IMG/VR virus record: IMGVR_UViG_3300014350_000112
Coordinates: 721-64,720 of that record
Reading direction: 5' to 3' (one strand)
From: a virus
DNA length: 64,000 nucleotides
Numbering within the stretch: position 1 is the stretch's first letter; every line of letters starts with the position of its first letter. Below, piece after piece: positions 25,525-44,283 of the stretch. The notes beneath the pieces were generated by a model. That model saw only the letters and a list, made by a program, of their open reading frames with translations, was not told where the DNA came from and made no database searches. The position numbers and the translations under genes were made by a program.

Positions 25525-25547
25525 TAAAGTTTAATATATTGTATTTA

Positions 25548-25583
25548 ATAAGGGCTGTGGCATATAACCACGGCCCTTTATTC
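25548..25583 (+). terminator. Intrinsic terminator
   Basis: AAGGGCTGTGG-catataa-CCACGGCCCTT followed by TATTCTC. Confidence 0.7.
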
Positions 25584-25604
25584 TCTTAAAAAGGAGATAA
25601 ATTA

Positions 25605-27885: not shown

Positions 27886-27898
27886 AAAGTATGAGTAA

Positions 27899-28507
27899 AT
27901 GACTAAAGAAAACTGGAAATGGCTTTACGATAATTTAAAAAAAGAATTTGATGAACTACAAGAAAAATATTATCAATTAAAAACTTTAGTTAAGAACATT
28001 GAAAAAGAAGCTAATGCGGTGCAAATTCAAACACCGCATTTAACCCCAATTGAAAAGATCATTATTCTTAAATTTTTATTTTCAACTTCTGGATTACACG
28101 GAAAGCGTATTTGTAATATTATACAAGCTTATAATTCTGATAGACATTATGATAGAAAAGATGAAGTAAATATCTCTATGTTAACCAAAGTGTATATAAG
28201 TAAGATAAGAACAAAGCTTTATAGTTTTGATATATACATATTAAGTAAACCGGGTAATTCAAATTTTTATTTCATGGACCCATTTGATAAGATTAAACTT
28301 TTAAAATTGAATGGTTATGACCCTAAAGAAATATTAAATTTAGACCCTGAAACTATAACTAAGTATCAATATCCTTTGGTCTTTACTAAAAAAAATTCTT
28401 TGAGGGTAGAGTATGACGATATTAATAGGGAAGTATATAAAAAGACTCGTAATAAATCTAGATTTGTGGGTGAACAAGAACGTCCATTAAAGGATGTTCA
28501 AAAATGA
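27899..28507 (+). CDS. Coiled-coil plus OmpR/PhoB-type winged-helix regulator
   Basis: LTPIE..IL..L, KVYISKIRTKL, I.SKPG...F resembles the OmpR C-terminal domain; no receiver domain. Confidence 0.55.
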   Translation: MTKENWKWLYDNLKKEFDELQEKYYQLKTLVKNIEKEANAVQIQTPHLTPIEKIIILKFLFSTSGLHGKRICNIIQAYNSDRHYDRKDEVNISMLTKVYISKIRTKLYSFDIYILSKPGNSNFYFMDPFDKIKLLKLNGYDPKEILNLDPETITKYQYPLVFTKKNSLRVEYDDINREVYKKTRNKSRFVGEQERPLKDVQK

Positions 28508-29580
28508 AAGCTATTTTTGTAGGTGATCTTCATTTGGGTAGTTTGAATAAATATTTTCCTAATCATCCGAACCCTGATGATTTTATTTATGAGGCACTTG
28601 AAAAAGTTTTTTCTTACGCTAGAGAAGAAAACATTAAACACATTATTTATTTAGGAGATATTTTCGATAACCCACTACCTTTACCTACGAGCGTAATTCG
28701 TTTTACTAAATTTAATCTTAAAAACTTATCTAAGTGGAAAGATCTAAATTTGTATCTTATACCCGGTAATCATGATTATGAAAAACAAGGAGATACATCT
28801 TTACGCATACCTATGTATATTAAAAGTCTTGGAGTTATGGATAGATTTCATATTTTTTCACAACCAAGCAAAATTAAGGTAGAAAAAATTCCTTTTCAGT
28901 TTCTACCTTGGCCTTTTCATAAAAGATTAGAAGGTTCTGCTTCTGTTATTGTAGCTCATATTACATTAAATGGGCATGTAATGAACTCTGGTTATAAAGC
29001 TAAAAATAAGATTGAAGTAGAAGTAGGTAAAGATGTTTGGGTTGTTGGCGATATTCATGAACGTTGTAAAGTAAAAAAAGGCTTTTATCATCCCGGAACG
29101 TTATATCAAACACGTTCAGATGAAAAGCTCCCTAAAGGTTTTACTATTATGACCGCTAGTAAATTAAAATCAGGAAAATTGAAAACTAATTTTAAATTTA
29201 TGCCTATTGACCCTCCGCATAGATTAGAAACGAAAATAATTGAAGTTAAAGAAGATTTTGACAATTTAACTAATCAGCCCAATATAGCTTACAAACTTTT
29301 TATATCCGAAGGAATACGTATTCCTTCGGATTTACGAAGTCGCTTTCCTAATATATGGAAAATTGAAGGCTATAAATCTAAGGAAGATTTAAAAAAAGTT
29401 CAAAATACTCCTAAATGGTTGGAGAAATTTTTCCAGAACGAAACTGATTCTGTAAAAGGTAAATCTTTGTTAACTGGTTTAGGCCCATGGTTAAAATCAA
29501 AAGGATTAAAAGCTAAACAAATAAAAATAGCTAAAAAAATAATGAAAAAAGAAATTCAGCCCCTTTTATCCGATGGCTAA
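28504..29580 (+). CDS. sbcD: SbcD/Mre11-like nuclease
   Basis: GDLHLG, LGDIFD, PGNHD, VAH, GDIH, PGT.YQ. Confidence 0.9.
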   Translation: MKAIFVGDLHLGSLNKYFPNHPNPDDFIYEALEKVFSYAREENIKHIIYLGDIFDNPLPLPTSVIRFTKFNLKNLSKWKDLNLYLIPGNHDYEKQGDTSLRIPMYIKSLGVMDRFHIFSQPSKIKVEKIPFQFLPWPFHKRLEGSASVIVAHITLNGHVMNSGYKAKNKIEVEVGKDVWVVGDIHERCKVKKGFYHPGTLYQTRSDEKLPKGFTIMTASKLKSGKLKTNFKFMPIDPPHRLETKIIEVKEDFDNLTNQPNIAYKLFISEGIRIPSDLRSRFPNIWKIEGYKSKEDLKKVQNTPKWLEKFFQNETDSVKGKSLLTGLGPWLKSKGLKAKQIKIAKKIMKKEIQPLLSDG

Positions 29581-30547
29581 TCCTTTTGTGATAGAACGGG
29601 AGTTAAAAAAACTTCCCGCAAGATTTGGTTTACAGCGTGTCGGTAATGATTTTAAAATCAGATGCCCGGATCATGCCGGAGGCAATGAGCGCACGCCTTC
29701 TTTTATAATTAATGGAACTAATTCTTCAAAATTTCCAATAGGGTCTGGTCACTGTTTTGCTTGTGGGGCTTCCTACCCTTCATGGAAAGCAACTTTATCC
29801 AGACTGTATGGTGGTGAAAAATCTACATTATCTAATGCAGATGTTATGGATCTTTCGTTTTATGATTTTACAAAAGATCTTGAACAGATCTTTTTATCTG
29901 AAAACATAGATATTAAAGAAATTCAGCCGGAATTAAAAGCTACCCGTCCTTGGGACGATAAAAATTGGCGCTCTATACCAAGCGAAACAATGAAAGCCGT
30001 TGGAGCGCGTCTTACATTTAATCCAAAATACGGTGAACGTGCTTTTATACCTTGCTATGTTCATAAAAAACTCGTAGGCGGTATATTTGCTAATCTTAAA
30101 AAGAATGGTAAAAGAAATTATTTTAATACCAAAGGAGATTGGGTAAATACTATATTAGTTTTTTATGACTATGTTAGAAAAAATTTTAAAGGACTAAATA
30201 CTATTGTTTTAGTTGAAGGTCCGCGTGATGCTTTACGCTTATTATCATGGGGGATACCAGCATTAGCTCTATTAGGAACAGCCCACGCAAAAAATGAATA
30301 TAAGTATGATCTTTTATCAAATTTTGATAATTTAGAAAATATTATTTTAGCCTTTGACGGTGACGAAGCTGGACGCATGGCTACAAAAGAAGCTTATAGA
30401 CATTTAAAAGATGAGTATAACGTAATAACTTTTAAAGTTGGAGATAATCAAGATATTTGTAGCATAAAAGAAAAGAAAATTAGTAAATTAAAAAAGCATA
30501 TTAAAGTTAAAATGAAAGGCCGCTTACTCAAAAGAGTAGCGGCCTGA
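29573..30547 (+). CDS. dnaG: DnaG-type primase
   Basis: Zn ribbon CPDH...ERTPSF...CFAC; Toprim VEGPRD, FDGDEAG. Confidence 0.9.
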   Translation: MANPFVIERELKKLPARFGLQRVGNDFKIRCPDHAGGNERTPSFIINGTNSSKFPIGSGHCFACGASYPSWKATLSRLYGGEKSTLSNADVMDLSFYDFTKDLEQIFLSENIDIKEIQPELKATRPWDDKNWRSIPSETMKAVGARLTFNPKYGERAFIPCYVHKKLVGGIFANLKKNGKRNYFNTKGDWVNTILVFYDYVRKNFKGLNTIVLVEGPRDALRLLSWGIPALALLGTAHAKNEYKYDLLSNFDNLENIILAFDGDEAGRMATKEAYRHLKDEYNVITFKVGDNQDICSIKEKKISKLKKHIKVKMKGRLLKRVAA

Positions 30548-30571
30548 CATAATTTAAAAGTGTTATATTAT

Positions 30572-31207
30572 TTAAATGACGGGGGTTTCAACTCCCTCTA
30601 AACCTTCAGAGGAAAATCTACGTAGCACGTCTGAAGTTGAGTTAGCGAGAATATACTTATAATCTTCTTCTGTAATTTGTTCAGAAATAACTCGCAGACG
30701 GCTAACTTTTTCCCTGTCATTAATTCCATCATCACCAATGATAGCGATGACCGCCGCTGTAATATTAGTGGTGTTTTCTTTATTCTGGCCCGGAATAAAG
30801 CTATTGCTATCTTCTCCATTAGCTACTCTGATAGCTTCATCCCTAATAATACTATTTACTTCTAAAAGCTGTTCTGCCACACCGGGTTTAAACACAAGAA
30901 CCTTTTGTGTATTAACAAGGCTTGCAAAATATTGAGAATTGACAATAGACCCAACATCAATTACGGATGAAAGATCAAAAGGTGCGTATGTTAAAGGAAT
31001 AGTAACTGGTCTTTGTTCTCCAGAGTTACTATCGGTTACGGGCAAGGTAATAATCCCCCGCGCTCGTCTTCCTCCCATATCAATATTATTTAAAACATAA
31101 AGAACAGGCAGCTTTTTTTCGTCATATAAACGACGAATAGTAGATAAATTTAAAAACGGGTTTGAATCAATTTTACCGAGTAACTCAAGAACTTTTTCAA
31201 TTTTCAT
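30572..31207 (-). CDS. Hypothetical protein, 211 aa
   Basis: AGGAGA RBS. Confidence 0.75.
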   Translation of the reverse strand: MKIEKVLELLGKIDSNPFLNLSTIRRLYDEKKLPVLYVLNNIDMGGRRARGIITLPVTDSNSGEQRPVTIPLTYAPFDLSSVIDVGSIVNSQYFASLVNTQKVLVFKPGVAEQLLEVNSIIRDEAIRVANGEDSNSFIPGQNKENTTNITAAVIAIIGDDGINDREKVSRLRVISEQITEEDYKYILANSTSDVLRRFSSEGLEGVETPVI

Positions 31208-31836
31208 TTTTTACTCTCCTGTAAATTACGGGCCACCCCCGCAAGTTTCTTTAATCTAATAAGCGTAGAACGTTTAACGCCTATTAGGCGATGAAGTGGA
31301 GTAGAAGTTTTCTCCACTAATCTCAAGTTGTTCATTTTTGAACTATATAAAGCTAAACCAAAATTAAAAAGTTTTTCTTTATTCAATTCTAGTGTTTTCA
31401 ATTTAAAAGGAAATTTATTTAAGTTGCGTTCTGCAAAACGTCTTCTTTTATTACATTTTTTTATGTTTAAACAATTGCCATGACTAGCTTTTTGAATACC
31501 GCATTTTGGGCAAGTAGGATATTTTAATGTTGGCAATTCATCAAGTAAAGAGGCTAAAAATAAAGCCTTTCTTATTCGTAATCTTCCTATTTTAGCAGAA
31601 TCATTAGCTATTTTTACTGTAGTTTTAAATAAAAAGCTTAGAGCAAATTTATCTAGTCTTGTTCCGTTATGAACATTCATATAAGCACAGCCGCCATTTT
31701 CTTTTCTAATATGTGAAATATTTGCGGGACAACGACGTATAGGACAAACATTAGTAAAGGATTCAAAGGAAGTTGGGCAAGAATAAACTTTTTTAGAATT
31801 TACATTAATAATAGGTTCTGAAGTAAGTATAGTCAT
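31204..31836 (-). CDS. Cys-rich, probably Zn-binding hypothetical protein
   Basis: CP...CPIRRC...C and CPKC...C..C clusters; CGGTAAA 41 nt upstream. Confidence 0.7.
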   Translation of the reverse strand: MTILTSEPIINVNSKKVYSCPTSFESFTNVCPIRRCPANISHIRKENGGCAYMNVHNGTRLDKFALSFLFKTTVKIANDSAKIGRLRIRKALFLASLLDELPTLKYPTCPKCGIQKASHGNCLNIKKCNKRRRFAERNLNKFPFKLKTLELNKEKLFNFGLALYSSKMNNLRLVEKTSTPLHRLIGVKRSTLIRLKKLAGVARNLQESKK

Positions 31837-31851
31837 AATGAACCTTTGTTT

Positions 31852-32385
31852 TTAACTGAAATGTCTCTCTAATTGTTTTACCGCTTTTTTATAAGACAAT
31901 GAATTAAAATTTCCTTTAGCTATATAATAAGACATAAATATGGCATCAATTCTATGTATGTGTTTTTTGAAAAGTTTATAAATATCCGGTAATTTTTTGT
32001 TAATAACTCTGTTCAACGAGTTTTTCCATGCACTAGGAACCACTAAAGTAAATTTTATACCTAAACTTTTAGCAGTAGCCGCCATTACTCCTAACATTAT
32101 ACCAATCTTTTCAATCAAGTTACCCATAAAACCACGGGTTAAAAATCGTTCTGCTATTATCTCTTTAGGACGATATTTTACTAAAAGTCTTTGAAATTCT
32201 TTTGTAAATTTTTGAAGTTGAATATCAAAACTTTTTGTTAAGTCGTTAATTGGGTTTAAAAACATTCCAGAAGAGTGTATAAAATTTTTCTTCTTTTTAT
32301 ATACTGCCCATGCTAAGTTTTTAGCCCCCATGTCAAATCCCATATAACGACCGTTAATTGGATTAATCTTACTAATTTTAAGCAT
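31852..32385 (-). CDS. ruvC: RuvC-like Holliday junction resolvase
   Basis: MGFDMG.KNLA, IIAERF, WK, IDAI acidic tetrad; start re-set to ATG 32385 (GAAGGGGG RBS). Confidence 0.82.
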   Translation of the reverse strand: MLKISKINPINGRYMGFDMGAKNLAWAVYKKKKNFIHSSGMFLNPINDLTKSFDIQLQKFTKEFQRLLVKYRPKEIIAERFLTRGFMGNLIEKIGIMLGVMAATAKSLGIKFTLVVPSAWKNSLNRVINKKLPDIYKLFKKHIHRIDAIFMSYYIAKGNFNSLSYKKAVKQLERHFS

Positions 32386-32486
32386 AAACACCCCCTTCAA
32401 TATTACTATCAATCCTGTATTGACCCCACACTTATAATTACACAAATTTAGCACCCCCTTAACAAAAATCTTTAGGTAATAAACAA

Positions 32487-35360
32487 ATGCGAATTGGCAA
32501 TCCGTTCCGTGGTATTCAAACGCAAGGCCCTAAAAATTACGGGCGCGCAGAAAATGAATTGCCTTTTGTTCAAGATGCTCTGGATGCTACTGTAAACCGT
32601 GCTAATCGTCAATATATAGAAGCTTTTAAAGTAGATGGCGTGCGTTACCTTCATTGGGGACGTGCTATGGAAGGTTATGTTTGCACTTGTAAAGCCGTAA
32701 AGCCGGAACAAGCGGACGGCACTGGTGTAAATTCAAGTGGACTTTCTAATAGCGATGATCCTTCATATTCTCCTTCTATATCCGACCCTTGGGATGCACT
32801 TACTGTTAGGGGTGTAAAAAGTTCTAGACATTCTAGGGACGATGGAATTTATGTAAACGAAGATGATTCATATTCTTCAGGAAAAGTTCGTGACGCAGAA
32901 GTTGATGAAGCGGCTTATACTATTGATTTTAATGATGAAGATTTTGGTCCCGTAGATTTAAGCGATAATACTTATACACAAAATATTCTTGATCTTTTAG
33001 GTAAGCCGTTATCTAGCGGCGAGATTCAATGTGGTATTTGTTTAGATACGGGATATGTAAACGGTTATCGTCTTACAGGCGGAGATAGAATTATATTTGA
33101 TGCGTCTGGTCAAGTTCCTGTTTATTCAGTGACCGGTTTTTCTATTGATAAACTTAAATCGCCAAATGTGTTTACTTTATCAAGCGCCATGTCAGGCGCT
33201 TACGTGCAATGGCTATGGGAAGTTCCCACACACTTTAAAAAAGCTTTATCTGTTTCCGTTAGAAATAATCAAAACCCTGCTAAGAACGTTCGTTTAGAAT
33301 ATAAACCATTTCAAGAAACACAAGATTTATGGAAAGAACTTACAGTTGAAGTTCTTAATTCGTTTAAAGGTTTACCTACGAAACTTATTTTACGCGTATA
33401 TGCTACGGCAAATGATTTGAGTGCTACTGTTGCATTTACTCATGTTGAGATAACACTCCAGTATAAAGACTGGAATAAGATGCAGATGCCGCCATTATCT
33501 GAAAACGGTAATCTTGCTATATTTGAAACTCCTACAAGTATGTCGGTTGTTCTCCCGCCTTCTCATCAAAATATTAAGCCTTTAGATTATATTTTAGATT
33601 TGAAATATGATAGATTATGGAGAGTATTAGACGTTACTGATGCTAAAACATCTAAACAACAAATTTTAGGCTGGCAAGTAAATTTAAGACTTATTTTGAA
33701 TCACGAAACGGCTCATGTTTTACGTGTAGCGTATGATCCTGAATTTGGATTGTCTTTTGCTACTATGCAGCCGCATCAAGAAAAGACGTTTACTAAAAAC
33801 GATGTAATGACATATGTTGACAAACTAGTAGGTATTCAGGAAAAAGCGCGCTTGCTAATACGTTCTTTGGTTTTGAATCCGCAAACTGGAGAATTTAGTA
33901 TAGGAACTTCAAAAGTAAAACGTAATAACATTTTCGATAACGTAAACGAAGATGGTCTAACTTATTTAGAAGCTGCTGTTTATCATTTTAAACGAAATTA
34001 TCCAAACTTAACTTGGGTATGGTTAGAGCCTTCTTGGTTTGGAACAGATTTACGTGCAGGATCATGTCAAATTCTTCCAAAGGTTAAAAATACTGTAGAT
34101 ACAACTGCACCTTATTCTTGGGTAGTAAATAATTTATCTCGTTCTGATGTTTCTGCCATATCCTCTTTTAATTCTAAGCCAGCATATGATGGAACATTTA
34201 GTGATAAATCTTTTGTAGAAGCTATAAATTATTTAAAAGCAAATGGTTATAAGGTTGGAATAAAACCTAAAATATTAATGGACATAACAGATGCACAAGC
34301 ATTACCTGCTATAGGCGGAGGGGTTCAACCGAGATACCCTAATGCTAATAACATAAATTACGACGGGGATGTAAATAAGGTTGTTAACGTAAATACGTTT
34401 TTTGGAACTCATGTAATTCCTGATTTTACGGCGGATGAATTAGAGTTGACGACTATTTCTAATAAAGTTGGATTTACTTATTCCCGTTTCATTATTCATT
34501 ATATTTTGTTATCGAATATTGCTGGTGGTGTAGATGCTTTTATTATAGGATCGGATCTTCGTAATTTAACAATCAATGTTCCTGAAGCAATAACACATTT
34601 ATTAACGTTAGCTCAAGCCGCGAAAGAAACCTTAAATTGTTTAGTATCTTATGAAGCATCTTCTTTTGAATATGGTGGACAAATTTCTGGTCAGGCATTA
34701 TCGTTTCCGTTAGATGCTTTATGGTCAAACGTGAATATTGATTTTGTAGCTATTAAGTTTGATTTAGAATGGACCGATTGGGCAACTGAAGGTTCTACCG
34801 ACCAACTTGCTTATACCTCATTATACGACCCAACTTATTTAAATGCCACCTTGAAAGGCGGCATACATTATGATTATTATTATTCTAGTGAACCTAACAG
34901 AACAAATGGTATACGCACACCCATTTCTGGAGATTGGCGTAAACGTAAAAAAGCCTTTTCTTCTTGGGTTTCAAATTCTCATATCACAATCGATGGTTCA
35001 GGAATTGATAGTGCAGCTACTTCTTGGGCGGCAATGTCTAAACCTATAGTATTTACAACTTTTTCAATACCAGCAATAGATAGAGGAACAAACGGTCCGT
35101 ATTCTTCTTCCATGTTACGTGCTGTTGATACCAAACCCTATTTCACTGATTCTAGTATAGATAATATGATTACAAAAGTTGGAGTATATACATTTCTTTT
35201 ATATTGGCTTGATAAAACTAATAATTTAATGAATACTTATAATGTGCCTGCTGTTAGATTTTCTATGAATTGTGCTGGTTATTTTAATATTCTTAATGGA
35301 AGTAAATTACCTACAGAATTTACTATTACAAATCGTGAATTGATTAATAATCAAATATAA
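32487..35360 (+). CDS. Virion protein: neck/head-closure-like N-terminus fused to a GTA baseplate (GTA_TIM) domain
   Basis: N-term CTC...CGICLDTGYVNGY; C-term WFGTDLRAGSC.I.PKV, PAYDGT.SD.S.VEAI..LK..G, GVDAFIIGSD, PLDALWS..NIDF, RTPI, SKPI.FT, AIDRGTN. Confidence 0.8.
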   Translation: MRIGNPFRGIQTQGPKNYGRAENELPFVQDALDATVNRANRQYIEAFKVDGVRYLHWGRAMEGYVCTCKAVKPEQADGTGVNSSGLSNSDDPSYSPSISDPWDALTVRGVKSSRHSRDDGIYVNEDDSYSSGKVRDAEVDEAAYTIDFNDEDFGPVDLSDNTYTQNILDLLGKPLSSGEIQCGICLDTGYVNGYRLTGGDRIIFDASGQVPVYSVTGFSIDKLKSPNVFTLSSAMSGAYVQWLWEVPTHFKKALSVSVRNNQNPAKNVRLEYKPFQETQDLWKELTVEVLNSFKGLPTKLILRVYATANDLSATVAFTHVEITLQYKDWNKMQMPPLSENGNLAIFETPTSMSVVLPPSHQNIKPLDYILDLKYDRLWRVLDVTDAKTSKQQILGWQVNLRLILNHETAHVLRVAYDPEFGLSFATMQPHQEKTFTKNDVMTYVDKLVGIQEKARLLIRSLVLNPQTGEFSIGTSKVKRNNIFDNVNEDGLTYLEAAVYHFKRNYPNLTWVWLEPSWFGTDLRAGSCQILPKVKNTVDTTAPYSWVVNNLSRSDVSAISSFNSKPAYDGTFSDKSFVEAINYLKANGYKVGIKPKILMDITDAQALPAIGGGVQPRYPNANNINYDGDVNKVVNVNTFFGTHVIPDFTADELELTTISNKVGFTYSRFIIHYILLSNIAGGVDAFIIGSDLRNLTINVPEAITHLLTLAQAAKETLNCLVSYEASSFEYGGQISGQALSFPLDALWSNVNIDFVAIKFDLEWTDWATEGSTDQLAYTSLYDPTYLNATLKGGIHYDYYYSSEPNRTNGIRTPISGDWRKRKKAFSSWVSNSHITIDGSGIDSAATSWAAMSKPIVFTTFSIPAIDRGTNGPYSSSMLRAVDTKPYFTDSSIDNMITKVGVYTFLLYWLDKTNNLMNTYNVPAVRFSMNCAGYFNILNGSKLPTEFTITNRELINNQI

Positions 35361-35517
35361 AAGCAAACTTAGTTTTTATATTTTTCGAAAGAGTCTAATT
35401 ATATATGAGAGCATAAAGCGCAAACTAAGTTTTGACTTTATTCTCTTAACTTGAACCCGAAGAATCCCGGCTAAAAGCTTTCGGTTTCTTCACCCCTTTA
35501 GAAAAGGAATAACTTAA

Positions 35518-36159
35518 ATGGCTCGTTTGCTTAAAGCAAAAGGCAAGAAGGCCGGGATGGGCGCTGCTAAATTTCCCGGTGGTAAGAAAAAAGCGGCTGG
35601 TAAAAAGGTTGCTAAATCTTCGGCTAAATCTGTAAAGACGACTAAGAAAGCTAAGGTCGTTGCAGCTAAAGGAAAAGGCCACAAGCGCCGTCCTGATCCG
35701 TCGAAGTGGGCGAAGCGTAAAAAGCCTTATGCGTGGCAGCTTGGTGAAGGTCAGATCAAGCAGCGTATTGCTAAATATCGTCAGAAGCACTCTTCGCTTA
35801 CTAAAGCGGCTCGCCCCGCCCTTCCTAAAGCTGTTAAAGCTTATGCCCGTAAATATTTTGCGGCTACTCGTAAATCGAGCAAGCTTCGCATGTATGATAA
35901 GGTGCGTGGTGCTTTTTATAGAAAGACTCTTAAAGATAAATACGGCACAACTAATACGTCGTTTTACGCGAAGGGTTTTAAAGCTGGCCGCCGCCCCCGT
36001 AAGGGTTCTCGCACCCGTGTTTATAAAAAGACTTCTGGAAAGCGCGGTCGTCCCGCCGGTAAGAAGACTGCGGCTAAAAAAGCGCCGGCTAAACGTGGCC
36101 GTCCCGCTAAGAAGACTGTTGCCAAACGTGGCCGTGGCCGCCCCGCTAAAAAGAAGTAA
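35518..36159 (+). CDS. Histone H1-like/HMGA-like basic DNA-binding protein with three AT-hooks
   Basis: Very K/R/A-rich; KRGRP, KRGRP, KRGRGRP at C-terminus; AAGGAA RBS; own terminator. Confidence 0.82.
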   Translation: MARLLKAKGKKAGMGAAKFPGGKKKAAGKKVAKSSAKSVKTTKKAKVVAAKGKGHKRRPDPSKWAKRKKPYAWQLGEGQIKQRIAKYRQKHSSLTKAARPALPKAVKAYARKYFAATRKSSKLRMYDKVRGAFYRKTLKDKYGTTNTSFYAKGFKAGRRPRKGSRTRVYKKTSGKRGRPAGKKTAAKKAPAKRGRPAKKTVAKRGRGRPAKKK

Positions 36160-36185
36160 TTTTAGCTTGGGATACTAAATTTGTT

Positions 36186-36221
36186 TAAGGCGGCAGTTTC
36201 TCTTTTGAAACTGCCGCCTTA
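36186..36221 (+). terminator. Strong hairpin terminator
   Basis: TAAGGCGGCAGTTTC-tctttt-GAAACTGCCGCCTTA. Confidence 0.8.
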
Positions 36222-36257
36222 CTCAATTTAATAATCTTAATTTGTAAAGAAATTGTT

Positions 36258-37490
36258 ATGACTCTTAACGTTAGATCGTTTTCAAATCAAGAAGACATGC
36301 AACGCGCGTTAACTACGCTTGCAAAATCAATTATTGATTTAAGATCGCGTTTAGATATAGAAAAACGTTCTATAAACGTGCAAAAAATTCGTAGCGCAAT
36401 ACAACGAGCTATGGCAGGCGGCTCTTTGTTTGATGAATTTCAAACCCGAGGACGCTCTAATTACGTAGATAAAAAAATAGAACAACAAAAAAAGAAACAA
36501 CCGATTTCGCCAGCAGATAATATAAATAAAATTATAGAAGACGCTAAAGGTAAATTAGATGCTTTAACTAATATAAAAGCTTTGTTGTTAAAATATTTTG
36601 ATGAAAAATATCCAATAGCAACAAAGATGAAAGTATTGGTTGATAAATTAATAACAAAAATAAAAGATTTAGACGAAGAAGCTAAAGACATATTAGATAG
36701 TAAAGTTCAATCGGCCTTACCTACAAGCTTAAAATTACATACTGAACGTGTAGTTAAATGGGCAAGAGATAGCGAACTCTCTAAAGAGGGAGTAGATTTT
36801 TATTATAAGGTTGATACTGTAAATGGTTCCGTTTCATATATAAGCGAAATAAAAATTTCTGGTGTTCGTGTAAGTGGATTAAAACTAAATTACTATGTTT
36901 ATATAGTAGCGATTCCAGCGAAAACAAAACAGCGTTTTAATTTCTTTATATCTGTATATAACGAGCCTGTTTCTGTAAAACAGCTTCGTTCTGATAATTA
37001 CGGGCAATCTTTTGTATCTACTAATAATGCTATAAATATATTACAATCTGAGTTGGATTTGTCAAAAAATAAGTCTTCTAAAGTCGAAAAGGTAACAATT
37101 ATTACGACTCCTTTTATAGAAAAATTTCGCGTTAAGGAACTAACTATATCTAAAAATGGTAAAAATACTATTGTAAGATTGGCCCTTATTGGTAAAAAAG
37201 CTAAACCTATAAATACACTTAAAGAATTACAAACAATTTTAACAGAAACTTTTCCAGAAATTAAAGATTGGGTTTCTCGTGTTAAGGCTAAAGATGGTGT
37301 TTCTTATGCTTTAACGGGTTCCGTTATAGTATCACCCAAAAATGTAAAAAATAGGTTAATTGAATTTAAGTTTGAAAAGAAATCTGTAGGTAATCCTAGT
37401 CGTATATTTATTACGGAATTCTATAAACGTTTTGGTCAGAGTATTAATCCTAATAAAATAGATCAAGCCCTATTAGCCTTTTACGGTTGA
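36258..37490 (+). CDS. Hypothetical (probably virion) protein, 410 aa
   Basis: ORF in late block. Confidence 0.75.
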   Translation: MTLNVRSFSNQEDMQRALTTLAKSIIDLRSRLDIEKRSINVQKIRSAIQRAMAGGSLFDEFQTRGRSNYVDKKIEQQKKKQPISPADNINKIIEDAKGKLDALTNIKALLLKYFDEKYPIATKMKVLVDKLITKIKDLDEEAKDILDSKVQSALPTSLKLHTERVVKWARDSELSKEGVDFYYKVDTVNGSVSYISEIKISGVRVSGLKLNYYVYIVAIPAKTKQRFNFFISVYNEPVSVKQLRSDNYGQSFVSTNNAINILQSELDLSKNKSSKVEKVTIITTPFIEKFRVKELTISKNGKNTIVRLALIGKKAKPINTLKELQTILTETFPEIKDWVSRVKAKDGVSYALTGSVIVSPKNVKNRLIEFKFEKKSVGNPSRIFITEFYKRFGQSINPNKIDQALLAFYG

Positions 37491-37500
37491 GTAAATTAAA

Positions 37501-38661
37501 ATGAAACTAGTAGAAGCTGTATTAGGACAAGAACTTGAAACGGAAATCTTTTTCCGTAGCGATTCGGGCTCGGGATTAGTAGTTGCTGCGCCACCGAAAT
37601 ACGAAATACGAGATTTTAATGATGCGCTAGTTTTATCTGGATTTGGTTCACAGGATGCTTTTAATTTAGCACGATGGACCACAAGATTTACTATACCTAC
37701 AAATTCTCCTATAGGTAAAGCTGGTCAAAAATATAAAATAGTTTGGTCAGTTAAAGAGTCTGCTTCTGGTGATCGCTATACTCAAACAGATTTCTTTGAC
37801 GTAAAATCTAATATAGATTTTAGTTCTCAATATACAGATATTGATGAACGTCTGGTTATAGAACAGACTTTTTTTGAAGACACATTAATTATTCCTGCCA
37901 ATATAGAGATAGATTCTTTATCTGTTTCTGTTTCAGACATTTTAGGAACTCTTATTTACGACTCTGGTTCTCTTCCGACTGCTCCTTCTGTATCAGATGC
38001 TTCAGTGCAAGTATTTAATCATAAAAGCGCAGCAACAATACCAACATTAGTAGTTGCGGGCCTTAATTGTATGCCTTATCAAATAAAGTGGGTATATAAT
38101 GACGGTGTTAGAGATTCTTACGTGATTCATTATTTATATGCTATTAATGCACGTATACTTGATATGCTGCATCAAATTCGTGCTCGCATAGATAAAGCCC
38201 GTAATCAATCCTATAATCCTGCACTAACATATTTAGATACCGATCTTTTAAAATATTTAGATCAGGGTCTTTCTATGTTTAATGCCAAAAAGCCTGTGCT
38301 TACAAATTTTACTATGAAAAACCTTCCTGATATATTCAGATACCCTGTGCTTGAATGTTCTTGTTATAATGCTTTGCGCGCGCAATTAGGTGCAGAAGGC
38401 CAAGCTACTTTTAATTTCGGAGGACAGTCTGTATCTTTAGATATGGATAGAACGCAATTTATAGAATCAGAATTAGGCCGTATTCAAAATTATATAGATA
38501 CAGACGTTCCTAGTGTTAAAAGACAATGGAATAGGCAAGGTGGAATTCGTGGTGCGGCTGGTGTATTGGGTGTAAATGTTGGAGCATCTTTTAATTGGAG
38601 CCCACCTCTTTATAATAGAGGAGGTTTACTTATTGGTTCTTATTCCTCAAGGAATAGATAA
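37501..38661 (+). CDS. Putative head-tail adaptor/neck protein
   Basis: Ig-like N-terminus; C-term DTDLLKYLDQGLSMFN...Y.ALRAQ...FNFGGQSVSLD resembles head-completion proteins (inference). Confidence 0.5.
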   Translation: MKLVEAVLGQELETEIFFRSDSGSGLVVAAPPKYEIRDFNDALVLSGFGSQDAFNLARWTTRFTIPTNSPIGKAGQKYKIVWSVKESASGDRYTQTDFFDVKSNIDFSSQYTDIDERLVIEQTFFEDTLIIPANIEIDSLSVSVSDILGTLIYDSGSLPTAPSVSDASVQVFNHKSAATIPTLVVAGLNCMPYQIKWVYNDGVRDSYVIHYLYAINARILDMLHQIRARIDKARNQSYNPALTYLDTDLLKYLDQGLSMFNAKKPVLTNFTMKNLPDIFRYPVLECSCYNALRAQLGAEGQATFNFGGQSVSLDMDRTQFIESELGRIQNYIDTDVPSVKRQWNRQGGIRGAAGVLGVNVGASFNWSPPLYNRGGLLIGSYSSRNR

Positions 38662-38681
38662 TCTAATTTTATATGTAGCAT

Positions 38682-38707
38682 AAAAACGTAAGCCCACACT
38701 TACGTTT
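38682..38707 (+). promoter_or_regulatory. Hairpin in leader of the 38754 gene
   Basis: AAAACGTAAG-cccaca-CTTACGTTTT. Confidence 0.45.
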
Positions 38708-38753
38708 TATCTTAGCTAGAAAGATAACTAACACCATTTCATTGGAGAAAAGT

Positions 38754-39566
38754 ATGTCTAAACTTTCGCGTTTACTCACAGCAACTGCTTCTATTGCTGG
38801 TTTGGCTTCCGTTCCGGTTGGAATTTCTGTTGCCGAGGTTCACAAATTAAATAAAGATTCTATTTTTGATTTTGAAGTTAATTCCAATTTAGGTCATACC
38901 GGCGAAGAGATTATTGCCGGTGTTAATTCTTATCTTAAAGAGGTAACTAATTCAGATAATTATACAGCGGTTGCTGGTAGTCTTTTTCCTATAGATGAAA
39001 CTGGTTTTCGTTTCCGCGTAGCTGTTAAACGTAACACTGTTTCTCTTGCTTACAATGATGAAAATCTTAAAGATAAGCACGTTATTAGTGCCAATGTATT
39101 TAAGGATGCGTCAGACGATCTTTGGCGTTTAGTTGGAGAAGGCGATAATCGCCGCCTCGTTCAGATTTCCGAAGAGGATCAAACAGAAATATTGAAGCGC
39201 GCTTATAATCCAAATTTAAAACGTGCTCTTGCTTCTGTTTATAAAGAGCTTCCGTGCGAAGCTGGTGATTTTGTTGCTTATTATAACGAAGACACCGCTT
39301 CTGTAGAATTTGGTTTAGCAGCTTCCTATAATGATAAAAATAAAACTATAGGCGTTGTTTCAAAAGATAAAAAAGAACTAGTAACCGCTCCCTCTGTTGC
39401 TATTCTTGCCAGCACCAATGCTGTAGATTTTAGAACTACAAGTTTAGAAGCTACTGCTAGTGATGCCCTTCAGCAGTATATAAACTATTTACGTTCCTAT
39501 TACGGTGAAAATAATGCTCTTATTGAAGGATTCCAGTCTTTCTTGACTAGTAAACGGCGCGGTTAA
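38754..39566 (+). CDS. Putative virion protein, about 270 aa
   Basis: GGAGA RBS; codon pattern of highly expressed genes; late block. Confidence 0.75.
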   Translation: MSKLSRLLTATASIAGLASVPVGISVAEVHKLNKDSIFDFEVNSNLGHTGEEIIAGVNSYLKEVTNSDNYTAVAGSLFPIDETGFRFRVAVKRNTVSLAYNDENLKDKHVISANVFKDASDDLWRLVGEGDNRRLVQISEEDQTEILKRAYNPNLKRALASVYKELPCEAGDFVAYYNEDTASVEFGLAASYNDKNKTIGVVSKDKKELVTAPSVAILASTNAVDFRTTSLEATASDALQQYINYLRSYYGENNALIEGFQSFLTSKRRG

Positions 39567-39625
39567 AAATTCAGCATGTCGAAAAATATTAGTTAAGTTT
39601 TGTGGGAAACAAGAGGGCGTTAACT

Positions 39626-40195
39626 ATGAATAATTTATCGACATGCACTTTAAATAAAAGCTTAAGAATTCTTGCTTCTAGCCCGGCAGGAACTCCTACA
39701 CACTTGAGCATTAATAAAAATGATGCTCAATTAATAGTAAAAGCTTTAGATAAACTCAGCAGCCAAAATGCTTCTGATCTTTTATCTCACGGAGAAAATG
39801 AAATGGTGTTTCTTGCTAAGGCTGTCTTGGAAAATCCCAAGACAGCCTATGCTGTTTTGAAACAAAACCATGCTTTTATTTTAGAAGCTAGGTCAACTAA
39901 CCATTCCTTAGGACGCCTTGCTAAAGGATTAACTAAAAAACAATTACTAAGTAAAATATCAACTATTTTAAAACGTAGTGGATTACCATCTTCTAAAACA
40001 ACTATAAATATTACAAGAGTTAGCCTTGGTCAGCAAGTAGAAATTCCAATAAAAGTTGGAACTCCTTATACTACCATAACGATGTTTAGGGCAGAGTTAG
40101 CTAAACATTATGAAATCCGTGGTAGCGTAAATCTTCAGGGAGCAGGCAAAGATCTTAAAATTCAATTTACAATTATTAATTGCAAGACCAAGTAA
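39626..40195 (+). CDS. Hypothetical (probably virion) protein
   Basis: GAGGG RBS. Confidence 0.7.
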   Translation: MNNLSTCTLNKSLRILASSPAGTPTHLSINKNDAQLIVKALDKLSSQNASDLLSHGENEMVFLAKAVLENPKTAYAVLKQNHAFILEARSTNHSLGRLAKGLTKKQLLSKISTILKRSGLPSSKTTINITRVSLGQQVEIPIKVGTPYTTITMFRAELAKHYEIRGSVNLQGAGKDLKIQFTIINCKTK

Positions 40196-40219
40196 TCTTT
40201 TAACAAAGGCAACAACACA

Positions 40220-41539
40220 ATGAGCCATATTTTAATTGCTAGAACTTTAGCTAATAACATTAACAAAACTTATACTGTTGATCTTATTGCTAAAACATTA
40301 TCTAAAAATTTAATTAAAGTTGTTGCAAAAGAAGAAAATAATAAGCAAGATGATAATAAGCAAGATAATTTTGATAATGAAAAATCTAATATTTCTAATA
40401 TTTCTAATGAGCCTACTCCTCATGAATTTATAGTTCGTATGTTGGAGCAGACTGCTAAAGCTAACGAAGGTTTGCACGAAAAGCTTGGTATAACTTTTCC
40501 AGTAATTGATTACGAGCGTATTACTAGAGCGCAAGAAGCAGCCGCCTCTGTTGATGAATATATGGATAATCAAAGAAAACTTTCATCTAACATTCCTATT
40601 GAAGTTTCTTTTTCTGTTTTAGCTCACTCTAAAGACGAATATAAATCGTCTAAACTTCTTCATCTGCTTGCTAAGGCAGCCGCAGCAGATATTAATAAAA
40701 CTAAAGAAGTTGCTGAAGGTGAACCTGATGATCCGGCCAGAGAAGATAATAAACTTTTAATTTTAATAGACCCTGATTCTGCTAAGTTAGTTCAGCGTGT
40801 TTTTGCAGATTATGTTTCTGAAGACGATCTATCTAAATTTGCACAGTTTCTTTTATCCTTTGATAAGTTGTTATTCAAGTTTAGAGACGGTAAACCGTTA
40901 GAGCGCGAAGAAATTGAAGAGTTAGAAGAAATTGAAGAAGCACGCGCTCAGAAAAAGAGACAACGTCGTGCCAGTAGATCTAAGAAGAAAAAGAACATAA
41001 AACCCAACGACGATTCGTATGACGAAGAAGGTAATGAGGACTTAGAGGAAGTTGAAGTTGCCAGCGTAGAAGAAAATGCTGGTTCATATAATGCTGAAGT
41101 TGTAAAAGCTTTCAATTCGTGGATGACTTCTTTTGTTTCAGAGCCGATTATTTTTTCTTGGCTAACATTAGCTACTGCAAATCTTATTCGTGCCGGTAAC
41201 AAAATTCAAGATATTCTTTCTTTTTTCCGGATGCTTACCGAAGTTAGCTCATTTAAAATGATAGGTATGAATCATGGAAACATTTTACTAGAAAATAAGT
41301 TGGGAATTAATTTAGAAGTTAAACTTCCGGTATTTGATAATAAACCTGTTGTTCTTCTAAGTGAAAGTATTAGAGATTCTTCTAATAACGTTATTCAAAA
41401 AGTTCTTGTTAAAATACCTAGATTAGCCGCAACAAGAATCTTAACAGCCGCCTTAGAATCATATGATAAAACTTCATACGGGCAACATGAAGAATATATA
41501 AAATCTTTAGGGCCTGCATTTAATTACAACGAGAATTAA
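40220..41539 (+). CDS. Hypothetical (probably virion) protein, 439 aa
   Basis: ORF in late block; charged low-complexity linker. Confidence 0.75.
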   Translation: MSHILIARTLANNINKTYTVDLIAKTLSKNLIKVVAKEENNKQDDNKQDNFDNEKSNISNISNEPTPHEFIVRMLEQTAKANEGLHEKLGITFPVIDYERITRAQEAAASVDEYMDNQRKLSSNIPIEVSFSVLAHSKDEYKSSKLLHLLAKAAAADINKTKEVAEGEPDDPAREDNKLLILIDPDSAKLVQRVFADYVSEDDLSKFAQFLLSFDKLLFKFRDGKPLEREEIEELEEIEEARAQKKRQRRASRSKKKKNIKPNDDSYDEEGNEDLEEVEVASVEENAGSYNAEVVKAFNSWMTSFVSEPIIFSWLTLATANLIRAGNKIQDILSFFRMLTEVSSFKMIGMNHGNILLENKLGINLEVKLPVFDNKPVVLLSESIRDSSNNVIQKVLVKIPRLAATRILTAALESYDKTSYGQHEEYIKSLGPAFNYNEN

Positions 41540-41552
41540 AAGGTTTAATTCG

Positions 41553-41867
41553 ATGCGCCTTCTTACAAACGCTGGTTTAGGTATGTCTTCGGAGCACCCA
41601 AATCAATTGGGTGCTCCTGCTTTTATTAATATTCAAGACCCTACAGCGCGTTTTCAAGCTAGGGGAACATTTGGCGTAGCTGGTAGCGTAAAAATATATT
41701 TAGGTCATTCTTTTAATGCACCTAAGTCGTCATGGGGATTATTAGCTACTATAACTGACGCAACTCCCGTTGTAATAACAAACTTAACTAATGGATATAT
41801 TGTAGCTCAAATAGAAGCCGGTGACGGAACTACCAATTTAACTGTAGATATGCTATTAGTTGGATAA
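41553..41867 (+). CDS. Small beta-rich protein, possibly structural
   Basis: 104 aa, G/T/V-rich. Confidence 0.7.
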   Translation: MRLLTNAGLGMSSEHPNQLGAPAFINIQDPTARFQARGTFGVAGSVKIYLGHSFNAPKSSWGLLATITDATPVVITNLTNGYIVAQIEAGDGTTNLTVDMLLVG

Positions 41868-41872
41868 CTTAA

Positions 41873-42523
41873 GTGAGTATTGTTGTAAGAGACCACCCCA
41901 AAACAAAAGATAAGTGGAAAACAAAACCGGAAAATAAAAAAAAGGGTAATCCTCTTTTTTCTACTTCGACTTTGAAATCTGAAAAAGCTCTTGCTAAAGA
42001 AGCGGATAAAGTTGAAAAGCTGTTAAAGAAAACAGCCAAACAACGTAAACGTCTTTTATCTGTTGCTAGAAGTAGCGGTTATTCAGACAAACAGTCCGCA
42101 AAACTTTTATCTTCTATGCGGTCCATGACTATTAATATGTTACCGCGCGCTGAAGAAACTTACCAACGTTTTGGTAACGAACGAGCAGCTTACGCTTATA
42201 ATTCTTTAGTATCTCAAATAAGAGAAATAGAAAATGATATGCGCTTGGTGGCTGACTTAGGGCATCAAGCTGAAAAAGTTGTTGATATATTTTCGGAAAA
42301 TTTTCGTAACGTTGCTCGTAATATGGTTCAACGTGCAGTTTATGTAAAACGAAATTTAGTCAATATTGCTGGTAAAAAAGCTTCTAAAGCTAAAGATTTA
42401 ATTGATGAAATGATTAAAGACCACGCTCAATTTATGGAAACTACTTTACAAAAAGTGCGCGATGATATTTTTGCGTTAATGACTGAACCTAAACCAAAAC
42501 AAATGCGTAAAAAAAGAAGGTAA
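41873..42523 (+). CDS. Helical basic hypothetical protein, 216 aa
   Basis: GTG start; ORF in operon. Confidence 0.7.
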   Translation: MSIVVRDHPKTKDKWKTKPENKKKGNPLFSTSTLKSEKALAKEADKVEKLLKKTAKQRKRLLSVARSSGYSDKQSAKLLSSMRSMTINMLPRAEETYQRFGNERAAYAYNSLVSQIREIENDMRLVADLGHQAEKVVDIFSENFRNVARNMVQRAVYVKRNLVNIAGKKASKAKDLIDEMIKDHAQFMETTLQKVRDDIFALMTEPKPKQMRKKRR

Positions 42524-42581
42524 TATTATGAAATATAAAAAAGCCATGGTTTTTTCTAATAACATAACTTAATTAAAACGC

Positions 42582-42881
42582 ATGGCTTACGGTAGAAGTG
42601 GATCAAAAGGTTATCGTGTAGCAAAAATAACAGGCAATAATTGGAAAGATCGTTATCCAGATCGCGCTACGTGGTCTAATTTACGTAAGCAAACAGTTGT
42701 TGTTAAAAAGTGTAAACGTTGCGGCTGCACGCCTACTAAAGATAATCCTATAGAGGCTGGTCATTGTGTTCCTTTATCTAAAGGGGGACGAAACACTCTG
42801 TTAAATTTGGGTGAAGAGTGTCGTCGCTGCAATAATTTAAAAGCTTCTCGTAAACCCTCGCACTTTAAAGGAAAACGCTAA
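42582..42881 (+). CDS. Small HNH endonuclease
   Basis: CKRC...AGHCVPLSKGG.N...NL...CRRCN..K. Confidence 0.85.
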   Translation: MAYGRSGSKGYRVAKITGNNWKDRYPDRATWSNLRKQTVVVKKCKRCGCTPTKDNPIEAGHCVPLSKGGRNTLLNLGEECRRCNNLKASRKPSHFKGKR

Positions 42882-43381
42882 TGAATAAACTTCGTGTATA
42901 TCAAACTACTGCTGCTAAACATAAAGTTGGTAGTAGTAACCGTATTTCTTATAATGTTCCTAATGATGTAGGAGAGCATGTTCTTATTTTGAAGGAAATT
43001 AAGAAAAATCTTCCCGGCTCTAAAATTTTTGGTGATTTAAAATTTGTTCCTCAAGATAAGAAAAAGAATAATGACCCATATTCTGAAGCTTTTTCGGCTT
43101 ATGTAAAATATAAAGGCTGTCTTATTATAATAGAGGATGGTAAGTATAAGTGTTACACATCCAATTATAAATCTAAAATGAATAAGTTCGTAGATGACAT
43201 TCTTTCATTTACAGATATTAATCTTTATATGCCTTTCCCCATTAAAATTCCTCTAGATAAAATTGAGGCTATATTCAATAAGTTCAAAAAAGAAGTTGAC
43301 AGCAATAATACCTTCTTTAAACAAATTAATAAGGCAGTTTATGATGCCATTGTAACTGTTCGCAATAGAAAGAAAAAGTAA
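42881..43381 (+). CDS. Hypothetical protein, 166 aa
   Basis: TAATG coupling with the HNH gene. Confidence 0.7.
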   Translation: MNKLRVYQTTAAKHKVGSSNRISYNVPNDVGEHVLILKEIKKNLPGSKIFGDLKFVPQDKKKNNDPYSEAFSAYVKYKGCLIIIEDGKYKCYTSNYKSKMNKFVDDILSFTDINLYMPFPIKIPLDKIEAIFNKFKKEVDSNNTFFKQINKAVYDAIVTVRNRKKK

Positions 43382-43382
43382 G

Positions 43383-43952
43383 ATGAAAAACCTCCTTTTA
43401 TCTTTGTATAATTACAGAGTAGAACCTACAAGAACATTTAAAAAAGATGCGAAGGAGGATCTTCAAAATTTAACAAAAAGAATGTTAGCTAATTATAATC
43501 GTTATTTACTGGACAAGTTAAAAACGATTACTAATGATATTCTAAATATTAAAAAAGAATTTTCTAAAGACCCTAACAAAAATATGTTAGTTAAAAATGC
43601 TTCTAATGAATTGGAACGTATTAAAATCTATCTTAAGCGTATTGCTAAACAATTACGAAAAAATAAGCCTTCTGAAGTTCGTAAGAGATTAAAAATACGC
43701 AAACACGCTATAAAATCTTCTGATTTTGATACTTCTAGTTACCCAATTCCTGCAAAAAAGAGGTTTGAAGCATTAAACAAAATTGTAACTGAAAAACAGA
43801 TGGGTAAAGTTGACGGTAAAACTATAGATATGCTAACAGCCCATACAGTTATTAGTATATTGAAACGAGTATCCATTGATAATCAAAGAAAGCTTTTATC
43901 TTTGCCTATTAATAAGATGATAGATGTTGTTTATAAAGTATCAAGTAAGTAA
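43383..43952 (+). CDS. Hypothetical protein with KVDG..IDM.TA..V C-terminal motif
   Basis: Motif recalled from small myophage proteins. Confidence 0.65.
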   Translation: MKNLLLSLYNYRVEPTRTFKKDAKEDLQNLTKRMLANYNRYLLDKLKTITNDILNIKKEFSKDPNKNMLVKNASNELERIKIYLKRIAKQLRKNKPSEVRKRLKIRKHAIKSSDFDTSSYPIPAKKRFEALNKIVTEKQMGKVDGKTIDMLTAHTVISILKRVSIDNQRKLLSLPINKMIDVVYKVSSK

Positions 43953-43970
43953 TCTGGAAAGGATCGTGCT

Positions 43971-44186
43971 ATGGACGGATTTATTCCTTTTGTTGCAGTA
44001 GGCGTTCTAGTTATTTTTGTAGTAGTAGGCTTTATTCTTCGTAACAGAAAAAAGAAGGCCATTATATCTACATCAACACCACCTACATCTAAAGATCCTT
44101 TAGATGGATGGGATGGATCTATGATAAGCGTTCCTCAGTTTCCTAATAAAGTAATTACAAGTATAAATACGGACCCTAAAAAATAA
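43971..44186 (+). CDS. Small single-TM protein, 71 aa
   Basis: N-terminal hydrophobic helix followed by RNRKKK. Confidence 0.65.
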   Translation: MDGFIPFVAVGVLVIFVVVGFILRNRKKKAIISTSTPPTSKDPLDGWDGSMISVPQFPNKVITSINTDPKK

Positions 44187-44283
44187 GTATTTATTAATAA
44201 ATAATTGCAAAGGTTCTATAAAATATCTTGAAGATGGATAAACTATAATAAAAAGCGTTGTGTCTATTATTAAGGTTATATAA

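Follow-up and report, generated by a model that had tools for sequence, protein, structure and literature searches.

The stretch of DNA analysed here (the window) comprises 64,000 nucleotides (nt), bases 721-64720 of the 66.6-kb linear virus record IMGVR_UViG_3300014350_000112. This study concerns a gene at 35518..36159 (+ strand, stop codon included) that encodes a very basic protein of 213 amino acids (aa), and the place this gene occupies among the structural genes of related jumbo phages. An earlier note on this DNA had described a K/R/A-rich protein of 213 aa with three RGRP cores, and the open reading frame (ORF), its composition and the shuffling of its residues agree with that description. 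The protein contains 53 K, 34 A, 24 R and 21 G. K+R account for 36% of the residues and D+E for 2% (4/213), and the isoelectric point (pI) and net charge were computed to be 11.9 and +73. RGRP starts at residues 176, 193 and 206. When the whole protein or only its C-terminal 48 residues were shuffled (200,000 times each), no shuffle had three copies, the maximum being two.

From the N-terminus onwards, all on the + strand, the gene encodes a segment of residues 1-56 (35518..35685), in which the motif MARLLxAK..GMGAAKFPG is followed by a Lys/Ala-rich tail (net charge +20; predicted local distance difference test (pLDDT) <50), and a helical core of residues 57-145 (35686..35952; net charge +24) with 11 aromatic residues and an invariant YDK. 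At the junction of the core and the C-terminal tail lies AGRRPR (35983..36000), an AT-hook-like Arg/Pro element. The tail carries the three RGRP cores at residues 176-179 (36043..36054; context KRGRPAGKK), 193-196 (36094..36105; context KRGRPAKK) and, at the C-terminus, 206-209 (36133..36144; context KRGRGRPAKKK). Each of them has K or G-R on its N-terminal side and A-K-K or A-G-K-K on its C-terminal side, and so fits the description of an AT-hook motif.

The gene stands alone, with spacers of 157 nt upstream and 98 nt downstream, as expected from its earlier description as monocistronic, and a Shine-Dalgarno-like AAGGA (35504..35508, +) is located 9 nt 5' of the ATG. In the upstream spacer a promoter-like element, CTAATTATATATGAGAGCATAAA, is present at 35395..35417 (+), 123 nt 5' of the start. 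Sister motifs were found on the same strand at 32372..32388, 115 nt 5' of the tail gene 32487..35360, and at 38663..38684, 79 nt 5' of 38742..39566, the gene after the connector gene. The pattern CTAATTWT-N0-8-GCATAAA occurs three times in the window where 0.05 are expected (0/100 shuffles reach three); all three copies are on the + strand and precede genes of the structural block. The candidate promoter that had been placed at 35395 is therefore real as a repeated element, although a sigma-70 consensus scan called nothing in the spacer. From its sequence context, CTAATTATATATGAGAGCATAAA would be a putative late or structural-class promoter of the basic-protein gene. Counted from the position of the motif, the leader would be about 100 nt long instead of the roughly 150 nt proposed before, and the region 35361..35520 is not unusually structured (z = -1.2). 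The element is framed by two copies of a palindromic 14-mer, GCAAACTTAGTTTT at 35363..35376 (+) on its 5' side and GCAAACTAAGTTTT at 35420..35433 (+) just 3' of it. The exact palindrome GCAAACTnAGTTTT occurs in the window only at 35363 and 35420, an operator-like arrangement around the promoter-like element, and may be a candidate operator or protein-binding site. With up to two mismatches neither the palindrome GCAAACTNAGTTTT (7 against 5.85 expected) nor the 14-mer TCTAATTWTATATG (6 against 5.7 expected) is enriched. Downstream, 27 nt after the stop codon, a hairpin with a perfect stem of 15 base pairs (bp) and a 6-nt loop (36186..36221, +) folds far better than expected (z = -8.4; 0/200 shuffles fold as well) and is probably a terminator or 3'-stabiliser.

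On its 5' side the gene is preceded by the tail gene (32487..35360, +; 957 aa), which matches GTA_TIM (PF13547, E 4.4e-50) and phrog_4271 'tail'. GTA TIM-barrel-like domains typically occur in proteins of gene-transfer agents and in phage proteins of host specificity. On the 3' side one unannotated gene of 410 aa is followed by the connector (head-tail) gene at 37501..38661 (phrog_17327, E 1.1e-42). The connector protein matches 92 phage records at less than 60% identity (the best 20 of the 92 at 24-31%). Among the 45 matches listed nearly all are jumbo myoviruses of about 190-280 kb, one being 108 kb, and they include PaBG, Lu11, the Dickeya JA phages, Erwinia Yoloswag and Y3, phiRSL1 and BcepSaruman. 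The order SbcD ... connector ... HNH ... giant helicase is common to the window, PaBG and JA29. The window, with a GC content of about 32%, is a fragment of a jumbo phage of the PaBG/Lu11/Salmondvirus type. CheckV estimated the completeness of the record at 26%, corresponding to a full genome of about 250 kb, and the phage is known from metagenomes only. No match to the locus or to the basic protein was found by blastn and tblastn in 50,697 phage records, and a search of viral contigs with the connector protein for related loci found none.

The position of the gene was compared in 9 of the 92 records with a connector match, chosen as different genera, in each of which 5-8 annotated ORFs around the connector were inspected. 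In 6 of the 9 loci a protein with a pI of at least 11 and a K+R fraction of at least 0.28 is encoded 2-4 genes upstream of the connector: PaBG gp295 (RefSeq O152_gp295, YP_008433514.1; 332 aa, pI 11.3), Lu11_0110 of Lu11 (429 aa, pI 11.1), JA29 gp175 (221 aa, pI 11.2), Yoloswag gp181 (228 aa, pI 12.0), Y3_185 of Y3 (225 aa, pI 11.6) and EVC12_148 of RHph_I42 (206 aa, pI 11.3), with K+R fractions of 0.28-0.33. The proteins of JA29, Yoloswag and Y3 form one family (56-65% identity); those of PaBG and Lu11 gave a co-linear alignment that was not significant (E 0.49). Like the window protein, the slot proteins of the PaBG group are encoded by a stand-alone unit upstream of the connector with a long spacer on either side, whereas the conserved N-terminal motif, the helical core and AGRRPR are particular to the window family.

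The signals around the slot are conserved as well. Of seven loci (the six relatives and the target), all but RHph_I42 have CTAATT[TA] 77-123 nt upstream of the slot gene, the background being 0.02-0.06 per 200 nt. A strong GC-rich hairpin was found within about 30 nt 3' of all six slot genes that were folded (the target and five relatives); the hairpins of the five relatives carry a U-run, unlike that of the window. In PaBG, Yoloswag and Y3 an extra GCTAATTT is located between the terminator of the basic gene and the next gene (L002 3815..3937; L005 5410..5559; L010 5969..6118), which fits CTAATTT as a general late-promoter element of this phage group. Thus, in this group of jumbo phages the slot, the promoter-like element and the hairpin are conserved around basic proteins that are not homologous. 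The Lu11 protein contains six PGRPKKT cores and the PaBG protein has no GRP core, and the former indicates that AT-hook-type motifs arose in at least two unrelated occupants of the slot.

Among the same-slot proteins, virion evidence is available for that of PaBG only; the paper on the Dickeya JA phages contains no virion proteomics. Table 1 of the PaBG study lists 14 Coomassie-visible bands from virions purified in caesium chloride (CsCl) gradients, of which band 8 is given as 'gp191, Unknown, 35,272.92 Da', and peptides of gp191 were reported in several bands (PMC7412058). The same-slot protein of the PaBG RefSeq record computes to 35,272.47 Da and so matches this band by mass, with neighbours that compute to 40,444, 37,132, 38,832 and 36,174 Da. 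Band 1 of the same table is 'gp202 RuvB helicase-like, 221,161.95 Da' (PMC7412058), and the giant helicase of PaBG (1969 aa; NC_022096.1 148541..154450) computes to 221,159.27 Da. With these two assignments the numbering of the paper and that of RefSeq are consistent (191+295 = 202+284). Apart from the basic protein, the mass match of band 1 is an observation in its own right: the giant SNF2-type ATPase of PaBG appears to be a virion component and not only an enzyme of replication or recombination.

Relatives of the window protein itself are few. A word-indexed search returned six, at 49-63% identity, and an exhaustive profile search of 1.84 billion representatives returned five proteins at E<=0.001, of which four are true members. 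The fifth, P0017, was rejected as a member, since only a repeated PAGRRPRMGRK segment is in common; it is a protein of 277 aa, unrelated to the family, with a hydrophobic N-terminus and a unit of about 45 residues repeated four times, each with PAGRRPRMGRK. The family is new and rare. Its nine members are 37-67% identical to the basic protein, share the N-terminal motif, the core and AGRRPR, and have net charges of +45 to +73. In their alignment an N-terminal motif rich in invariant positions is followed by a conserved core (about 60-165) with the invariant YDK and by a variable C-terminal tail. AGR.PR is present in 9/9 and AGRRPR in 8/9, within a near-invariant AGRRPRxG. Judged from this alignment, the family is under purifying conservation. 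Contigs of 4 runs from 3 studies are at least 99% identical to the gene where they overlap it, and they cover the hook region only in part. Two changes were seen in them, A72V at 35732, which is non-synonymous, and a synonymous one at 35988, too few for conclusions on selection.

AlphaFold2, run on the alignment of nine sequences, gave a mean pLDDT of 58, with residues 1-56 and 174-213 (except 209) disordered. In the core, helices were predicted at 61-66, 77-90, 104-119 and 121-142, with block pLDDT values of 81-91 over residues 71-140 and no strands. Searches for a related fold or family were negative throughout: Foldseek returned nothing at E<=0.001 from PDB and BFVD, Pfam and PHROGs gave no family at E<=0.01, a sequence profile search of PDB gave no match at E<=1, and the ESM Atlas yielded no usable feature match, the pLDDT of its own model being 0.42. 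The best hit of VIA-align among 48,161 chains was a helical hairpin of 42 residues with a Z of 5.3, which is within the noise range stated for that tool. As modelled, the core is without a recognisable known fold.

The codon usage of the gene deviates from that of its surroundings. Its GC content is 0.50, and its GC3 (GC content at third codon positions) of 0.42 compares with about 0.20 in nearly all other genes, those for the tail and connector proteins included; TTA is used for none of 7 Leu (54% in 22 bulk genes), AGA for 1 of 24 Arg (34% in the bulk genes) and AAG for 49% of the Lys (21% in the bulk genes). Since many amino acids are affected, avoiding poly-A runs cannot by itself account for the shift. 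The same anomaly is seen in the genes at 126..2990 (- strand), including that of the acidic AT-hook protein discussed below (GC3 0.66). The minus-strand block 126..3074 consists of small genes with a GC content of 0.40-0.55 and a GC3 of 0.43-0.69 against about 0.20 elsewhere, and several of them are followed by a hairpin plus T-run.

We consider the best explanation to be that the basic protein is an abundant, late-expressed DNA-coating protein without sequence specificity that is packaged together with the genome. It would be made from its own promoter within the structural-gene block. Its two disordered Lys/Ala/Arg-rich tails and its basic helical core (+73 in total) would neutralise phosphate charge, while the C-terminal RGRP hooks, and probably AGRRPR as well, would insert in the narrow minor groove of the AT-rich (about 32% GC) DNA. 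A simple calculation shows that it would take about 690 copies to neutralise 10% of the phosphates in a 256-kb genome. In the head, where by analogy with PaBG the protein is probably packaged with the genome, it would ease condensation, and at infection it would leave the head with the DNA. DNA binding, late timing, abundance, packaging and co-ejection of the protein are all put forward here as inferred properties. We put the probability of this explanation at about one half, because packaging is derived from an analogy of position, composition and signals with one virion protein and not from homology. The earlier suggestion that the protein compacts the DNA in the capsid gains indirect support from the mass match of the PaBG protein to a virion band, but that protein has no detectable homology to the one in the window.

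Several findings weigh against packaging or against a role centred on the hooks. Comparison of the window family with the proteins of PaBG, Lu11 and JA29/Yoloswag/Y3 by hhalign gave probabilities of 0.1-0.5%; without detectable homology, the virion evidence from PaBG carries over only by position, composition and flanking signals. The 410-aa gene beside the target is not similar to its PaBG or JA29 counterparts either, and in 3 of the 9 related loci (PhiXhv-12, phiRSL1 and BcepSaruman) a basic protein is lacking in the examined stretch near the connector. Scans of viral, metagenome and genome contigs with the family alignment gave no confirmed homologous locus, nor did scans with P0006 (metagenome contigs) and P0005 (genome contigs). 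The text of the PaBG paper names 'gene 191' sbcD, in conflict with its own Table 1 (PMC7412058). The Pfam model AT_hook (PF02178), of 13 positions only, scored 9 bits against a cut-off of 17.4 (E 1.9) over three stretches, and at E<=10 it matches 2/9 family members. RGRP hooks occur in 5/9 members and are missing in 4/9. This implies that the hooks are not the core function of the family, and on the alignment they appear to have been added in particular lineages to a protein that was very basic already. The atypical codons could reflect a recent foreign acquisition just as well as adaptation to high expression. Finally, consensus scans called neither a promoter nor a terminator around the gene. 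The stem of the proposed 15-bp-stem terminator was confirmed by its z of -8.4, but no U-run follows the hairpin 36186..36221 and the terminator scan did not call it.

The earlier note had placed the basic protein in a eukaryote-like chromatin toolkit, the parts of which are indeed encoded in the window: a Lys/Ala-rich histone-like ORF (2652..2990, 112 aa), the SSB-like protein with poly-D/poly-K blocks, an SNF2-related domain in a protein of 1835 aa (53181..58688, +) and a type IB topoisomerase (PF01028, 32.3 bits against a cut-off of 23.7) within the ORF 50507..52585, for which hmmscan at E<=0.001 listed nothing. Their integration into one system was not supported, and their co-occurrence proved non-specific. 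A large helicase gene is present near the connector in 7/9 related loci, including those of phiRSL1 and BcepSaruman, and a topoisomerase IB is annotated in phiRSL1; in neither phage was a basic protein found near the connector. The other protein with a hook is encoded at 1539..2342 (- strand). It is an acidic protein of 267 aa (phrog_30618) with 28% Asp+Glu, Ser/Asp/Glu-rich repeats and a single KRGRGRPKK hook, and its ORF and that of the basic protein are the only two in the window with KRGRGRP-type hooks. The near-duplication seen between its hook and the last hook of the basic protein holds for the peptides, KRGRGRPAKK resembling KRGRGRPKK, but only 15/21 bases agree in the DNA. Recent duplication as the link between the two was rejected, since 6/7 third codon positions differ; the likeness is thus at the peptide level and not that of a recent copy. 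The SSB-like protein (24196..25524, +; phrog_15004) ends in four near-identical repeats in which poly-Asp runs alternate with EKPSKKKKKVDKKKKK, giving about 190 residues of alternating extreme charge.

Much of the evidence for DNA binding would equally support a late architectural protein of the nucleoid type that is not packaged, but coats or bridges newly replicated AT-rich phage DNA in the cell. There it could organise the DNA for packaging, modulate late transcription or block silencers of the H-NS/MvaT/Lsr2 type at the same minor-groove sites. H-NS, Lsr2 and Bv3F are described as using AT-hook-like Q/RGR motifs on AT-rich DNA (PMC8476142), so that competition with them by an RGRP protein is conceivable on a genome of 32% GC. 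The promoter-like motif itself contains AATT, and the virion evidence comes from an unrelated protein of PaBG and not from the window family. Against this stand the location of the gene within the tail/connector block, the motif it has in common with structural genes and the finding that the only same-slot protein with experimental data is that of PaBG, in CsCl-banded virions. We regard this main rival as possible, although rather unlikely. An integrated chromatin system, in which the basic protein, the acidic AT-hook protein (1539..2342), the SSB-like protein, the SNF2 ATPase and the topoisomerase IB together compact and unpack the genome, is improbable. All its named components are present in the window, and the masses of the PaBG basic protein and of the SNF2-type giant ATPase of PaBG both fit virion bands, the window ATPase being homologous to the latter (27% identity of the 1835-aa protein with the PaBG giant helicase over residues 797-1341, E 1.5e-50). 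However, a large helicase gene is also present near the connector in phiRSL1 and BcepSaruman, and a topoisomerase IB is annotated in phiRSL1, although neither phage showed a basic protein there. Nor do the two KRGRGRP hooks represent a common module at the DNA level, and there is no link between the acidic proteins and the basic one. In addition, such Snf2 helicases were read as UvsW-like recombination helicases in a comparative analysis (PMC7824862).

A role in host shut-off, with the protein coating and compacting the host nucleoid, as chlamydial Hc1 does when expressed in Escherichia coli, so as to stop host transcription and replication, seems very unlikely to us. Hc1-type proteins, to which the amino-acid composition is comparable, were reported to lower the synthesis of protein and DNA in E. 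coli cells that express them (PMC12619734). Nevertheless, the basic protein has no Hc1 domain, its position and the class of its promoter-like motif fit structural genes and not the early-looking block, and AT-hooks would favour AT-rich phage DNA over the DNA of most hosts. The least probable of the alternatives, with hardly any weight in our estimate, is an RNA-binding or ribosome-associated protein (an mRNA chaperone or a mimic of a ribosomal protein) that does not bind DNA. For the basic, aromatic-rich core the prediction is confident only at the level of separate helices, a feature of many ribosomal proteins, several weak fold matches were to ribosomal or pre-ribosomal chains (Z 3.6-4.2), and the PaBG paper notes several ribosomal-protein-like proteins (PMC7412058). 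Those Z values are, however, within the stated noise range of the tool for helical models, no match was found in Pfam or among the PDB sequences, and RGRP hooks are classically binders of the DNA minor groove.

A bolder form of the packaged-coat explanation, which we offer as a long shot, is that phages of the PaBG group package a minimal 'chromatin'. A fast-evolving and repeatedly replaced basic protein would coat the AT-rich genome in the head, enter the cell bound to it and shield it from H-NS-type silencers and nucleases, and the co-packaged giant SNF2-type ATPase would strip the basic protein or translocate the DNA. If true, the conserved slot, promoter-like element and terminator would represent a functional niche that is kept by non-orthologous replacement.

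The DNA in the heads of tailed phages is generally regarded as essentially naked. A conserved slot for extremely basic, independently transcribed and unrelated proteins, one of which, in the cultured phage PaBG, appears to be abundant in virions, points to an overlooked protein part in the packaging or delivery of jumbo-phage DNA. With 36% Lys+Arg such proteins yield tiny tryptic peptides, and standard virion proteomics may systematically miss them. The new family adds a predicted folded core and RGRP hooks as a handle for biochemistry and makes it testable whether coating proteins delivered with the DNA guard AT-rich phage genomes against silencing or restriction at entry. The general idea of histone-like genome compaction in phages is already in print for a family of the Hc1 type (PMC12619734). 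The most interesting aspect of the present locus is the conserved slot, with its promoter-like element and terminator, for non-homologous occupants, one of which is mass-matched to a PaBG virion band.

Elsewhere in the window, gene content was assigned with PHROGs and Pfam. Besides the short structural block, genes of replication and nucleotide metabolism were found (clamp loader, SbcCD, primase, UvsX-like recombinase, SSB-like protein, NAD ligase and DNA polymerase), as well as a sigma factor, and no tRNA was found in the window. Upstream of the replication genes lies another word, ACGGTAAA, with 11 occurrences against 2.8 expected (0/100 shuffles reach 11). Its sites span 8324..53173 (e.g. 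10577, 20506, 24150, 25924 and 53166), mostly just 5' of replication and nucleotide-metabolism genes, and the word resembles a 'putative middle/late promoter' (CTGTAAATAG...) annotated in the Lu11 record. It is probably a candidate second promoter class of this phage group. Several copies of CTAATT and ACGGTAAA are also present in the 895-nt divergent intergenic region at 9247..10141, between the minus- and plus-strand gene blocks, which has a higher GC content (0.39) than its surroundings and contains a probably spurious ORF of 92 aa (9385..9663). This region may be a control region, an origin or a non-coding RNA. Two anti-defence candidates were noted: a Tad3-like anti-Thoeris candidate at 14637..15143 (+; PF25185, E 4.8e-20) and, within a protein of 642 aa encoded at 46636..48564 (+), an Acb1 anti-CBASS domain (PF23474, E 7.5e-17).

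Compared with known DNA-coating proteins, the window protein resembles several without belonging to any of them. Many copies of the T4 internal proteins IPI-III are packaged alongside the DNA and enter the cell together with it. Internal head proteins of the T4 type carry an N-terminal capsid-targeting peptide that is removed at a conserved Glu-containing protease site. In the window family no conserved site of the Glu type was recognised: the conserved N-terminal motif contains no Glu, and the single Glu of the window protein (residue 77) is not conserved. Adenovirus protein VII and the inner-body proteins of phiKZ are likewise described as proteins that are packaged in many copies and delivered along with the DNA. 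The role proposed here for the window protein is like that of all three, with no homology to any, and phiKZ-type inner-body proteins are not known to be notably basic low-complexity proteins. In the literature consulted, no AT-hook or basic low-complexity protein is described in tailed-phage virions, apart from the unannotated PaBG band. Hc1-type 'histone H1-like' proteins, for which genome compaction was proposed, are reported from large aquatic 'moraphages' (PMC12619734). The classification as histone-H1/HMGA-like had to be given up as far as membership is concerned, in that a linker-histone or Hc1 domain, a winged-helix or HMG fold and an acidic tail are all missing. PF00538 (linker histone H1) has no match at E<=1 anywhere in the record, and PF07432 (Hc1) has none at E<=1 in the record and none at E<=10 in the nine family members. 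With H1 and Hc1 the protein has in common the arrangement of basic tail, small core and basic tail and the Lys/Ala-rich low-complexity regions, whereas its core is predicted to be a helical hairpin and not a winged helix. RGRP is the AT-hook consensus of HMGA, which binds the minor groove at AATT (PMC8476142). As in HMGA, three such cores are flanked by Lys/Arg in a segment predicted to be disordered, which implies binding in the minor groove of AT-rich DNA. However, the window protein shows no sequence homology to HMGA, is twice as long, has a conserved helical core and ends in KKK without an acidic C-terminal tail, and the hooks are missing in four of the nine members of its family. The window protein would thus work like an architectural protein of the AT-hook/H1 type, but it belongs neither to HMGA nor to linker histone H1 or Hc1.

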